From Escherichia coli (GTDB taxonomy: Bacteria; Pseudomonadota; Gammaproteobacteria; Enterobacterales; Enterobacteriaceae), in NCBI RefSeq assembly GCF_017348835.2, contig NZ_CP071375.1: 64,000 bases of DNA; one strand, written 5' to 3'. Position numbers and translations under genes: made by a program. Below, one piece after another: positions 2,568 to 45,535 of this stretch. Below the pieces are notes generated by a model. It did no database searches, was not told the origin of the DNA, and was given only the letters and a program-made list of their open reading frames with translations. Position 1 is the first letter of the stretch; each line of letters starts with the position of its first letter.

Positions 2568-3862
2568 TATCGCTCCTGTTTATGCCCTAACTTCCGTAGC
2601 ATTTCGCGCGTTACCAGCACGATGCCTTCTTCTGAACGATAGAAACGACGTGCATCTTCCTCTGCGTTTTCACCAATCACCATGCCTTCCGGAATAACAC
2701 AAGCACGATCGATGACGCAGCGGCGCAGACGGCACGAGCGACCTACCCATACTTCCGGTAACAATACGGCGGAATCAATGTTGCAGAATGAATTCACGCG
2801 AACGCGCGAGAACAGAACGGACTGCACCACCACCGAACCGGAGATCACACAACCGCCGGAAACCAGTGAGTTAAGGGTCATCCCGTGGCTACCGGAGCGA
2901 TCCTGCACGAATTTCGCTGGCGGTAATGATTCATTGTAGGTGCGAATTGGCCAATTGCGATCGTACATATCCAGTTCCGGCACCACAGAGGCCAGATCGA
3001 GGTTCGCTTTCCAGTAAGCTTCCAGCGTACCCACATCGCGCCAGTACGGCTCGGCATCCGGGTCGGATTGTACGCAAGAGAGCGGGAACGGGTGCGCATA
3101 GGCCAGACCGGCTTCGGTGATCTTGGGAATCAAATCTTTGCCAAAGTCGTGGCTGGAGTTCTCATCGCGATCGTCTTCTTCCAGCAGTTCATACAGATAG
3201 TCGGCGTCAAAGACGTAGATACCCATACTCGCCAGAGATTTGCTCGGATCGTTCGGCATTGACGGCGGGTTAGCAGGTTTTTCAACGAATTCGATAATTT
3301 TATCGTTCTCATCAACCGCCATAACGCCAAATGCGGAGGCTTCTTCAATCGGTACTGGCATACAAGCAACAGTGCAACGTGCGCCTTTTTCGACGTGATC
3401 GATAAGCATACGCGAGTAGTCTTGCTTGTAGATATGGTCGCCCGCCAGGATCACCACGTATTCCGCTTTATAACGGCGGATAATGTCGAGGTTTTGGGTG
3501 ACCGCATCTGCGGTGCCGCGATACCAGTTTTCCCCTTTCATTCTCTGCTGTGCTGGCAGCAGATCGACAAACTCGTTCATTTCTTCATTGAAGAATGACC
3601 AGCCGCGCTGAATGTGCTGCACCAGAGTGTGGGACTGGTACTGGGTGATCACGCCCATACGACGGATCCCGGAGTTGATGCAGTTAGACAGCGCAAAGTC
3701 AATAATGCGGAACTTACCGCCGAAGTGTACGGCCGGTTTTGCTCGCTTATTGGTTAAATCCTTCAGGCGGGTACCACGTCCTCCCGCCAGTATCAGGGCA
3801 ACAGATTTCAATGGCAGCTGGCGCGCCAACATTAAGTGATCGTTCTTCTCTAAACTAACCAT
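2567..3862 (-). CDS. glgC: Glucose-1-phosphate adenylyltransferase GlgC
   Basis: Track ORF 2567..3898; start moved to ATG at 3862 ([17 protein letters not shown]...) matching the conserved GlgC N-terminus; 1-nt overlap with glgA. Confidence 0.9.
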
Positions 3863-19612: not shown

Positions 19613-19643
19613 TTAAGCCCTCACCTACCGGGAGAGGGCTTAA
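19613..19643. terminator. Bidirectional hairpin between convergent yhhY and ggt (ttaagccctc / gagggcttaa)
   Basis: 10-bp perfect inverted repeat with 11-nt loop in the 60-bp yhhY-ggt gap. Confidence 0.45.
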
Positions 19644-42596: not shown

Positions 42597-44804
42597 ATGT
42601 CGACTCCTGACAATCACGGCAAGAAAGCCCCTCAATTTGCCGCGTTCAAACCGCTAACCACGGTACAGAACGCCAACGACTGTTGCTGCGACGGCGCATG
42701 TTCCAGCACGCCAACGCTCTCTGAGCTCTCTGAAAACGTCTCCGGCACCCGCTATAGCTGGAAAGTCAGCGGCATGGACTGCGCCGCCTGTGCGCGCAAG
42801 GTAGAAAATGCCGTGCGCCAGCTTGCAGGCGTGAATCAGGTGCAGGTACTGTTCGCCACCGAAAAACTGGTGGTTGATGCCGACAATGACATCCGTGCAC
42901 AAGTTGAATCTGCGGTGCAAAAAGCGGGCTATTCCCTGCGCGATGAACAGTCCGCCGACGAGCCACAAGCATCGCGCCTGAAAGAGAATCTGCCGCTGAT
43001 TACGCTAATCGTGATGATGGCAATCAGCTGGGGTCTGGAGCAGTTCAATCATCCGTTCGGGCAACTGGCGTTTATCGCGACCACGCTGGTTGGGCTGTAC
43101 CCGATTGCTCGTCAGGCATTACGGCTGATCAAATCAGGCAGTTACTTCGCCATTGAAACGTTAATGAGCGTAGCCGCTATTGGTGCGCTGTTTATTGGCG
43201 CAACGGCTGAAGCTGCGATGGTGTTGCTGCTGTTTTTGATTGGTGAACGACTAGAAGGTTGGGCCGCCAGCCGCGCGCGTCAGGGCGTCAGCGCGTTAAT
43301 GGCGCTGAAACCAGAAACCGCCACGCGCCTGCGTAACGGTGAGCGGGAAGAGGTGGCGATTCACAGCCTGCGCCCTGGCGATGTGATTGAAGTTGCGGCG
43401 GGCGGGCGTTTGCCTGCCGACGGTAAACTGCTCTCGCCCTTTGCCAGTTTTGATGAAAGCGCCCTGACCGGCGAATCCATTCCGGTGGAGCGCGCAACGG
43501 GCGATAAAGTTCCTGCAGGAGCCACCAGCGTAGACCGTCTGGTAACGCTGGAAGTGCTGTCAGAACCGGGTGCCAGCGCCATTGACCGGATTCTGAAACT
43601 GATCGAAGAAGCCGAAGAGCGCCGCGCCCCCATTGAGCGGTTTATCGACCGTTTCAGCCGTATTTATACGCCAGCAATTATGGCCGTCGCCCTGCTGGTA
43701 ACGCTGGTGCCGCCGCTGCTGTTTGCCGCCAGCTGGCAAGAGTGGATTTATAAAGGGCTGACGCTGCTGCTGATTGGCTGCCCGTGTGCGTTAGTTATCT
43801 CCACGCCCGCGGCGATTACCTCCGGGCTGGCAGCAGCGGCACGTCGTGGGGCGTTAATTAAAGGCGGTGCGGCGCTGGAGCAGCTAGGTCGTGTTACCCA
43901 GGTGGCGTTTGATAAAACCGGTACGCTGACCGTCGGTAAACCGCGCGTTACCGCGATTCATCCGGCAACGGGTATTAGTGAATCTGAACTGCTGACACTG
44001 GCGGCGGCGGTCGAGCAAGGCGCGACGCATCCACTGGCGCAGGCGATCGTGCGCGAAGCACAGGTTGCTGCACTCGCCATTCCCGCCGCCGAATCACAGC
44101 GGGCGCTGGTCGGGTCTGGCATTGAAGCGCAGGTTAACGGTGAGCGCGTATTGATTTGCGCTGCCGGGAAACATCCCGCTGATGCATTTGCTGGTTTAAT
44201 TAACGAACTGGAAAGCGCCGGGCAAACGGTAGTGCTGGTAGTACGTAACGATGACGTGCTTGGTGTCATTGCGTTACAGGATACCCTGCGCGCCGATGCT
44301 GCAACTGCCATCAGTGAACTGAACGCGCTGGGCGTCAAAGGGGTGATCCTCACCGGCGATAATCCACGCGCAGCGGCGGCAATCGCCGGGGAACTGGGGC
44401 TGGAATTTAAAGCGGGCCTATTGCCGGAAGATAAAGTCAAAGCGGTAACCGAGCTGAATCAACATGCGCCGCTGGCGATGGTCGGTGACGGTATTAACGA
44501 CGCGCCAGCGATGAAAGCTGCCGCCATCGGGATTGCAATGGGCAGCGGCACAGACGTGGCGCTGGAAACCGCCGACGCAGCATTAACCCATAACCACCTG
44601 CGCGGTCTGGTGCAAATGATTGAACTGGCACGCGCCACTCACGCCAATATCCGCCAGAACATCACTATTGCGCTGGGGCTGAAAGGGATCTTCCTCGTCA
44701 CCACGCTGTTAGGAATGACCGGACTATGGCTGGCGGTACTGGCAGATACGGGTGCGACGGTGCTGGTAACGGCGAATGCGTTAAGGTTGTTGAGCAGGAA
44801 ATAA
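42597..44804 (+). CDS. zntA: Zn(II)/Cd(II)/Pb(II)-translocating P-type ATPase ZntA
   Basis: 735 aa; N-terminal metal-binding GMDCAAC, CPC motif (IGCPCALVIS), DKTGT phosphorylation site. Confidence 0.95.
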   Translation: MSTPDNHGKKAPQFAAFKPLTTVQNANDCCCDGACSSTPTLSELSENVSGTRYSWKVSGMDCAACARKVENAVRQLAGVNQVQVLFATEKLVVDADNDIRAQVESAVQKAGYSLRDEQSADEPQASRLKENLPLITLIVMMAISWGLEQFNHPFGQLAFIATTLVGLYPIARQALRLIKSGSYFAIETLMSVAAIGALFIGATAEAAMVLLLFLIGERLEGWAASRARQGVSALMALKPETATRLRNGEREEVAIHSLRPGDVIEVAAGGRLPADGKLLSPFASFDESALTGESIPVERATGDKVPAGATSVDRLVTLEVLSEPGASAIDRILKLIEEAEERRAPIERFIDRFSRIYTPAIMAVALLVTLVPPLLFAASWQEWIYKGLTLLLIGCPCALVISTPAAITSGLAAAARRGALIKGGAALEQLGRVTQVAFDKTGTLTVGKPRVTAIHPATGISESELLTLAAAVEQGATHPLAQAIVREAQVAALAIPAAESQRALVGSGIEAQVNGERVLICAAGKHPADAFAGLINELESAGQTVVLVVRNDDVLGVIALQDTLRADAATAISELNALGVKGVILTGDNPRAAAAIAGELGLEFKAGLLPEDKVKAVTELNQHAPLAMVGDGINDAPAMKAAAIGIAMGSGTDVALETADAALTHNHLRGLVQMIELARATHANIRQNITIALGLKGIFLVTTLLGMTGLWLAVLADTGATVLVTANALRLLSRK

Positions 44805-44812
44805 AGGTGTTG

Positions 44813-44835
44813 CCTGATAGCCTCTGGCTATCAGG
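44813..44835. terminator. Bidirectional hairpin after zntA (cctgatagcc-tct-ggctatcagg)
   Basis: Perfect 10-bp inverted repeat 9 nt after the zntA stop, abutting the stop of the convergent small ORF. Confidence 0.5.
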
Positions 44836-44836
44836 G

Positions 44837-45145
44837 TTAGTGCTGGGCCGGGAACGGTGGCATGGTCAGGAAAGTGTAATATAGCGCTAACATCAGAATG
44901 ACGGAGATAACACAACATGTAGCAACCAGGCGGGACGTGAATGATGGCCTTTTGAACATCAACCACAGGGCATAAGCAAGCCCGACGCCGTTAAGTAAAG
45001 GTAAAAAAATCATTAGCCAGAGCCAACCACAGGCAAGTACCCCCAGCCATCCCCCCACGGCGATTAAAACAGGCATCAGCCAATTGGGGGCGAACATCGC
45101 GAACAATCCCAGCAATCCCAGGCAAACAGGAATTAAATAATCCAT
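44837..45145 (-). CDS. Hypothetical small membrane protein (about 3 TM helices)
   Basis: 102 aa ORF, strongly hydrophobic with W/L/G-rich helices; no clear SD; no family recognised. Confidence 0.3.
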   Translation of the reverse strand: MDYLIPVCLGLLGLFAMFAPNWLMPVLIAVGGWLGVLACGWLWLMIFLPLLNGVGLAYALWLMFKRPSFTSRLVATCCVISVILMLALYYTFLTMPPFPAQH

Positions 45146-45169
45146 TTGTGTATTCCATTACACTTGCTT

Positions 45170-45203
45170 GCCGGATGCGGCGTGAACGCCTTATCCGTCC
45201 TAC
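45170..45203. repeat. REP (repetitive extragenic palindrome) element
   Basis: gccggatgcggcgtgaacgccttatccgtcctac matches the canonical E. coli REP GCCGGATGCGGCGTGAACGCCTTATCCGGCCTAC with one mismatch. Confidence 0.8.
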
Positions 45204-45289
45204 GTACCGGTTTCAAGCAGCAACATTGAGTGCGATCGGTCCACTCGCCCCTCTGGGGAGAGGGTTAGGGTAACAGTCCGTGATCCACC

Positions 45290-45535
45290 TTAACCACCTT
45301 TACGAATCAAATAACGATAAGGCAGTCCATCCGTCTCTTTAGCAACCAGTTCGTGTTCCATAAAGGTACAAAACCCAGGAATATCGCGGGTCGTCGCCGG
45401 ATCGTCAGCAATAATCAGCAACGTTTCACCTGGCTGCATATTGCGCACTGTTTTGCGCACCATCATGACTGGTTCCGGGCAGCGCAGGCCAAGTGCGTCG
45501 AGTGTGTGGTCAGGGCTGGAAAAGAGATCGGTCAT
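45290..45535 (-). CDS. tusA: Sulfur carrier protein TusA
   Basis: 81 aa [33 protein letters not shown]... CPxP motif. Confidence 0.95.

Follow-up and report, generated by a model that had tools for sequence, protein, structure and literature searches.

Does the spacer between zntA and tusA in Escherichia coli hold a gene of its own, or does a long reading frame happen to stay open there among repeats? The question was raised by a 64,000-nucleotide stretch of E. coli contig NZ_CP071375.1 (assembly GCF_017348835.2), which is referred to here, in its full length, as the window. The original prediction, made from the letters of this DNA, described a 102-residue, very hydrophobic open reading frame (ORF) together with a REP element and a second short palindrome, and it left the choice between an unannotated small membrane protein and a chance frame in GC-rich repeat DNA.

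The spacer of the window strain is 485 bp long and occupies exactly positions 44805-45289, bounded by the zntA stop codon (44802-44804, + strand) on one side and by the tusA stop (45290, − strand) on the other. Read from zntA (42597-44804, +) towards tusA (45290-45535, −), it contains a perfect hairpin (44813-44835, no strand assigned), the ORF of 102 codons (44837-45145 including the stop codon, − strand, ATG start), a weak Shine-Dalgarno-like GGA (45154-45156, −), a single REP, or palindromic unit (45170-45203, no strand assigned), and a palindrome contained in a truncated BoxC/PIT/TMECO repeat (45242-45271, +). The ORF shares its strand with tusA, its upstream neighbour, and is convergent with zntA downstream. 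Over the 701 bases around the locus strain PE164 is a 100% match, and O145:H28 strains share the ORF allele of the window.

The flanking zntA gene shows a peculiarity of its own. It encodes 735 residues in the window, compared with 732-733 in all other loci examined, and the additional length corresponds to a tandem three-codon repeat (…TLSELSENVSG… versus …TLSENVSG…) at approximately 42715-42735, codons ~41-46, which sits N-terminally, ahead of the metal-binding domain.

The ORF encodes a protein with a GRAVY of 1.35, in which D2, K65, R66, R72 and H102 are the only charged residues, in agreement with the strongly hydrophobic product first described. An AlphaFold2 model based on an 18-sequence family alignment is all-helical (mean pLDDT 80), with helices at residues 4-18, 24-65 and 69-94, the same number as had been predicted. 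The middle helix spans 42 residues and contains the conserved motif PLLNGVG; being long enough for two spans, it may form a helical hairpin, which would give the protein three or four membrane spans. The sole polar loop, KRPSFTSR (65-72), is probably cytoplasmic by the positive-inside rule, and the C-terminus reads PPFPAQH. From these predictions we infer both the membrane insertion and the topology of the protein.

A further observation concerns its N-terminal part. Residues 1-20 (45086-45145, MDYLIPVCLGLLGLFAMFAP) resemble residues 21-40 (45026-45085, NWLMPVLIAVGGWLGVLACG), with the corresponding motifs YLIPVCL and WLMPVLI. The first ~20 residues, which the distant homologue described below lacks, could be the product of an internal duplication in the Escherichia lineage, and with a DNA similarity of only ~50% we leave this as a remark.

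The protein is already present in databases as a hypothetical one, so that it cannot be called unannotated: RefSeq lists it as WP_000385059.1, PGAP annotates it as a hypothetical protein or CDS in every carrier E. coli genome sampled, and the exact protein, "uncharacterized" in UniProt, is present on at least 1000 contigs. A literature search with the protein's accessions returned nothing. Searches against Pfam, NCBIfam, PHROGs and PADLOC gave no above-threshold family for the ORF, for its distant homologue or for the orphan gene next to it (both described below); the only NCBIfam match of the ORF reached 15 bits against a cut-off of 95. A profile search of PDB sequences with the ORF gave no meaningful match, and neither did Foldseek with its AlphaFold2 model against the PDB (best E = 2). 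Rfam returned for the region only a sub-threshold match to the REP-derived naRNA4 (32.7 bits; cut-off 59.5); this match lies outside the ORF body and is due to the REP. The G+C content of the ORF itself is 50%, and its DNA does not belong to a repeat, which departs from the GC-rich repeat character first ascribed to it.

To determine how widely the ORF is distributed, we surveyed 5426 complete E. coli genomes. It is present in 317 of them, chromosomal and in single copy, with no plasmid copies. The carriers comprise two allele classes, one at ≥99% identity (49 genomes) and one at 90-95% (266 genomes). The whole block is missing from about 94% of E. coli genomes, among them K-12; besides the carriers, 5099 genomes have a 101-bp spacer of the K-12 type, which in the alignment is without one block consisting of hairpin, ORF and REP. 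The ORF also occurs in E. marmotae, E. whittamii, E. albertii and the cryptic Escherichia clades, and the type strain of E. albertii has it intact, with 102 codons. Among 100,044 species-representative genomes scanned, only Escherichia had the ORF.

Its genomic position is strictly maintained. At every locus examined the ORF follows tusA on the same strand, and where zntA adjoins (E. coli, E. marmotae, E. whittamii and the cryptic clades) the order is tusA, repeats, ORF, 32 nt, zntA. The orthologous copies compared in E. marmotae, E. whittamii, several cryptic lineages and the type strain of E. albertii all measure 102 codons and are free of indels. Across the genus the ORF was never found off this one core-genome position, and it is located in neither a prophage nor an island.

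Several features of the alleles and spacers merit separate mention. The two E. coli allele classes, represented by the window and by strain MS 198-1 (L002), are only 91-92% identical in DNA, and tusA shows a dS of 0.15 between them, far more divergence than E. coli core genes typically show. Nearest to the window allele is that of Escherichia sp. E1V33 (98% amino acid identity), which suggests recombination between clades at the tusA/ORF locus. Strain GmF052 (L003, 1606-1630) carries a rare third spacer type of 260 bp, with BIME and BoxC and no ORF; it opens directly after the zntA stop with AGGCTATCAGTCTACGGTCCAACA, in which one hairpin arm (GGCTATCAG) is followed by sequence absent from the window.

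Is the frame translated into a protein on which selection acts? An ORF of at least 102 codons arises in 11% of shuffles of the 485-bp spacer, so that in one genome the frame by itself is not beyond chance and its credibility rests on comparative evidence. We therefore performed the comparison of synonymous and nonsynonymous change that the original prediction had proposed, using 14 distinct alleles from across Escherichia (86-99% DNA identity), all of which are open and free of indels. Parsimony on a neighbour-joining tree of these alleles yielded 146 changes, distributed 43/29/74 over the three codon positions. Of these changes, 67 are synonymous, compared with a null mean of 46.6 (sd 5.5) when the same mutations are placed at random sites (P = 1.5e-4). 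By expectation ~5.8 of the changes would have created a stop codon, and none of the 14 alleles contains one. The other reading frames across the ORF all contain stops, and most give higher ratios.

The strength of this constraint is modest. Pooled dN/dS is 0.45-0.47 (Nei-Gojobori), more than ten times the 0.02-0.04 obtained for tusA, yhhQ, zntA and yhhN in the same genomes. Both the dN (0.07) and the mean dS (0.17) of the ORF are below the dS of the flanking genes (0.25-0.35, same genome pairs), and therefore the DNA is constrained rather than evolving neutrally. An open frame with synonymous bias across orthologues is the usual mark of protein coding; the ORF shows it, and is probably a genuine protein-coding gene, weakly constrained at the protein level. 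A dN/dS of 0.45 would also be compatible with a gene drifting towards loss.

The dS of the ORF, about half that of the four flanking genes, is an observation in its own right. An additional constraint at the nucleic-acid level, the recombination history of the locus, and estimator bias in a very hydrophobic protein are candidate causes.

The repeats between tusA and the ORF were then identified. The REP at 45170-45203 was correctly described as canonical, with one mismatch to the 34-nt consensus, where shuffles give an expectation of 0 matches; the REP family is defined by an imperfect palindrome of roughly 35 nt (GCCGGATGCGGCGTGAACGCCTTATCCGGCCTAC). It is extragenic, with a predicted stem-loop of −15.6 kcal/mol, and occupies the same position in every ORF-bearing locus aligned, ending 24 nt before the ATG and abutting the ribosome-binding region. 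The window strain has a single REP here, and orthologous spacers of other strains contain two to three REPs arranged as a BIME. One REP copy was found in the 64-kb window. With a 701-bp query, megablast placed a median of 20 matches in each genome, a figure in which REP and BoxC are mixed.

The second palindrome proved real, with its coordinates off by 3-4 nt: CCCTCTGGGGAGAGGG is located at 45249-45264, not at 45245-45261. It is also no separate motif. BoxC, PIT and TMECO are names of one intrastrand-triplex repeat with the consensus CCCTCNCCC N3-6 GGGNGAGGG N3 GGGNGAGGG (Holder et al. 2015; PMC4666352), and the window matches its blocks 1 and 2 (CACTCGCCC-CTCTG-GGGAGAGGG) at 45242-45264 with one substitution, in block 1, followed by the TTA linker. 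Block 3, the purine block that would supply the third strand of the triplex, is cut to GGGT, after which unrelated sequence follows: the linker (ending at 45267) and block read TTA-GGGTAACAG, with GGGTAACAG in place of GGGTGAGGG, and the full consensus finds no match in this copy even with up to three substitutions. The palindrome thus corresponds to the hairpin half of a truncated BoxC/PIT/TMECO repeat, and the window copy can fold into a Watson-Crick hairpin only, not into a triplex.

The K-12 orthologue, in which block 3 is intact, identifies the window copy as a remnant. The zntA–tusA spacer of K-12 contains a perfect, full 35-nt BoxC copy, and the same 35-mer is found upstream of fabI; the MG1655 annotation has no repeat feature in this spacer. 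The 101-bp K-12 spacer that carries the element matches, at the median, 19 places in an E. coli genome, in keeping with a family dispersed between genes at about 20-30 copies. MG1655 has 23 intergenic BoxC/PIT/TMECO copies, elements reported to have no promoter or terminator activity and, as TMECO, to lie within flanks that are unusually variable or unstable between strains (PMC4666352).

Elsewhere in the window, an intergenic hairpin between convergent ORFs (19617-19640, GCCCTCACCTACCGGGAGAGGGC) fits BoxC blocks 1 and 2 with one substitution, but a third block is missing. Rather than a BoxC copy, this is probably an ordinary hairpin of the terminator type.

At the opposite end of the spacer, the hairpin at 44813-44835 forms a perfect 10-bp stem with a 3-nt loop (CCTGATAGCC-TCT-GGCTATCAGG), 1 nt past the ORF stop and 8 nt past the zntA stop, and it is perfectly conserved in all loci with zntA directly downstream. 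As RNA on the ORF strand it has a folding energy of −18.6 kcal/mol (z = −3.5). The promoter and terminator scan did not call it a terminator, and it is not a canonical intrinsic one because an adjacent U-run is absent. It is more likely an RNA 3′-end stabiliser or a weak two-way terminator; the two convergent transcripts would both have their 3′ ends protected or terminated by it. In E. whittamii-type loci (L013 and L031, ~3323-3325) the loop (window 44823-44825) is inverted, reading TCT instead of AGA on the ORF strand, with both stem arms unchanged, the pattern expected from a palindrome flip.

These elements suggest how the ORF might be expressed. The promoter scan found no sigma-70-like site between tusA and the ORF, and the REP ends close before the ATG, which makes read-through from tusA the likeliest route. 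We infer that the ORF is co-transcribed with tusA and read at a low level from the tusA promoter, through the BoxC remnant and the REP. Translation would start from the weak GGA 8 nt upstream of the ATG; the statement that no obvious ribosome-binding site exists was roughly right.

The frame is not intact in all Escherichia. In one E. albertii strain W33 is changed to TGA, together with a scrambled stretch. A −1 deletion in a G6 run is found in E. marmotae-like contigs and another, in a T7 run, in the E. coli B093 lineage (15 contigs), and the ORF of O145 strain RM8995-C1 is annotated as frameshifted. Frame-disrupting indels in close relatives, which the original prediction had named as evidence against a gene, are thus found in a minority of lineages, but the full-length, ungapped 309-bp frame is kept in 59 of 60 evenly sampled E. 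coli carriers. We read the disruptions as sporadic pseudogenisation of a gene that is dispensable, not as a sign that it never coded; its dispensability follows from their occurrence in several lineages and from the ~94% of E. coli genomes that do without the block.

Given the observed reading frame, synteny, coding signature, losses and repeat identities, we consider it fairly probable that the ORF is a real gene of a narrow lineage. Its product would be a polytopic inner-membrane protein of 102 residues with three predicted helices and probably four spans. The gene itself would be the remnant of an old tusA-linked gene, kept under weak purifying selection, pseudogenised several times, dispensable, and expressed at a low level by tusA read-through. 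Its role would most likely be that of a non-essential accessory membrane protein.

A closely related account holds that the ORF was functional in the Escherichia ancestor, is no longer selected in present-day E. coli and persists undeleted in a minority of strains. We regard this as rather unlikely. It would readily explain why dN/dS stands at 0.45 when tusA, yhhQ, zntA and yhhN are at 0.02-0.04, why the frame was disrupted repeatedly and independently, and why ~94% of E. coli genomes lack it. It would also suit the REP and BoxC insertions that part the ORF from tusA, which the distant homologue adjoins, and the presence of a BoxC/TMECO element, whose flanks are reported to be unusually unstable (PMC4666352). 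However, such a relic would hardly be expected to remain full-length and ungapped in 59 of 60 sampled carriers, to show a significant synonymous excess over the genus-wide tree, or to be intact as far as E. albertii and E. whittamii. This account and the preferred one, a gene still weakly selected, differ only in whether selection acts today, and the present data fit both.

Evidence from beyond the genus bears on whether the frame codes at all. A profile search carried through all of 1.84 billion representative proteins retrieved the ORF's own family, fragments and one distant homologue, P0039 (83 aa, E = 9e-5). Another candidate, P0040 (360 aa), gave a repetitive match and was dismissed as compositional. 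Used alone as query, P0039 retrieved only itself. In pairwise comparison with the ORF protein it is 36% identical over residues 21-102 (E = 1e-14), including an identical C-terminal FPAQH. Its gene starts 35 nt downstream of the tusA stop, on the same strand, behind an AAGGA Shine-Dalgarno sequence (contig L026). The motif GGAAT(G/A)C around the GGA site of the ORF is common to this locus, which has AAGGAATGC. The TusA of L026 clusters with that of Superficieibacter, and Superficieibacter genomes with a TusA at least 90% identical show no ORF homologue downstream of tusA.

P0039 differs from the ORF protein in several respects. It is without the first ~20 residues, that is, one helix; its gene adjoins tusA without repeats between them and has a stronger Shine-Dalgarno sequence; and it is known from one sample only.

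That the ORF is a chance frame in a non-coding spacer, conserved through close kinship or through a role of the DNA or RNA itself, is improbable in light of this homologue. At such divergence non-coding DNA would be unrecognisable, and a similarity at the protein level, with a shared C-terminus and an unchanged place behind tusA, is hard to explain in that way. Equally long frames in 11% of spacer shuffles, the weak ribosome-binding site, the failure to find a dedicated promoter or to match a protein family, and the existence of disrupted alleles are all what a chance frame would show, and an ORF dS below that of the neighbours hints at constraint not at the protein level. Against this stand the 43/29/74 distribution of changes, the synonymous excess (P = 1.5e-4) and the ~5.8 expected stops of which none was kept, as well as the other frames, which all contain stops and mostly have higher ratios; Rfam offers no match besides the sub-threshold REP-derived one outside the ORF body. 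Of the two alternatives first proposed, the small membrane protein is favoured over the chance frame by 14 open alleles, third-position bias, synonymous excess and a 36%-identical homologue after tusA.

In L026, P0039 is followed by a convergent orphan gene (688-1176, 162 aa). It is homologous to a gene of 164/165 aa that separates the ORF from zntA both in the type strain of E. albertii (L030, 3369-3866) and in Escherichia sp. MOD1-EC7003 (L029, 3378-3872). NCBI names the gene "DUF2004 domain-containing"; against Pfam and NCBIfam it gave nothing at E ≤ 0.1. The orphan gene is absent from the window, where only the hairpin 44813-44835 stands at its position.

Small hydrophobic proteins are also known from conflict systems. 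Type I toxins are under ~60 aa, have a single membrane span and are paired with an antisense RNA, and class I holins belong to phage lysis cassettes and have a charged C-terminus. That the ORF encodes such an effector (a membrane toxin, a holin-like protein or an orphan bacteriocin/microcin immunity protein) is very improbable: its small size, extreme hydrophobicity and three to four spans, its presence/absence polymorphism within E. coli, which an effector role would explain, and the uncharacterised orphan adjoining it in E. albertii and its homologue in L026 are set against the lack of PHROGs and PADLOC matches and of plasmid copies, a single core-genome position across the genus that speaks for vertical inheritance and loss rather than mobility, a location outside prophages and islands, and a product that with 102 residues and several spans is unlike type I toxins and with an uncharged C-terminus unlike class I holins.

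Under the preferred reading of a weakly selected, tusA-linked gene, the history of the locus may be reconstructed as follows. The ancestral order would have been tusA, the small ORF, a convergent DUF2004-like gene and zntA. The E. coli/E. marmotae group would then have lost the DUF2004-like gene, with only the hairpin left at its place. BoxC and REP/BIME elements would have colonised the spacer between tusA and the ORF, and the hairpin, ORF and REP would then have been lost in most E. coli lineages. The loss of this block fits the reported instability of TMECO flanks (PMC4666352), with the repeats as a possible cause.

TusA-like proteins pair with sulfur-compound transporters, and by analogy a functional link may be considered. 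The ORF protein and its Superficieibacter-like homologue might represent a hitherto unnoticed family of small, polytopic membrane proteins acting together with TusA, a partner with which most E. coli would have dispensed; one possibility is that they tether or modulate this sulfur-relay protein at the inner membrane. We consider the proposal highly doubtful. Were the protein to act with TusA, or to take part in handling metal or sulfur at the membrane, studies based on K-12 would have overlooked it.

Collectively, the analysis adds a coding signature and a distant tusA-linked homologue to a protein so far listed as hypothetical, and it describes a genus-level gene that is absent from ~94% of E. 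coli genomes, including K-12. Sites of the BoxC/TMECO type are reported as unstable, and the locus is an example of reductive evolution at one of them. REP and BoxC are textbook E. coli repeats and the ORF was already in RefSeq and UniProt; the result matters little beyond a tidier annotation.

Compared with known systems, the elements of the spacer are largely familiar. About 485 PU/BIME copies are present in E. coli (PMC2267715), and the window REP is typical of REP/PU and BIMEs in its consensus, extragenic location and stem-loop; it differs in standing 24 nt before a start codon, not after the last gene of an operon. The BoxC/PIT/TMECO remnant resembles reported TMECO loci, being intergenic with flanks that are hypervariable between strains. 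With respect to the general class of small accessory inner-membrane proteins of enterobacteria, the ORF protein exceeds the classical single-span ones in size and number of spans, and it is related to no characterised member in sequence or fold. It nevertheless resembles the class in its length of 102 residues, its very high hydrophobicity, its weak ribosome-binding site, its narrow taxonomic range and the position of its gene, which trails a housekeeping gene.
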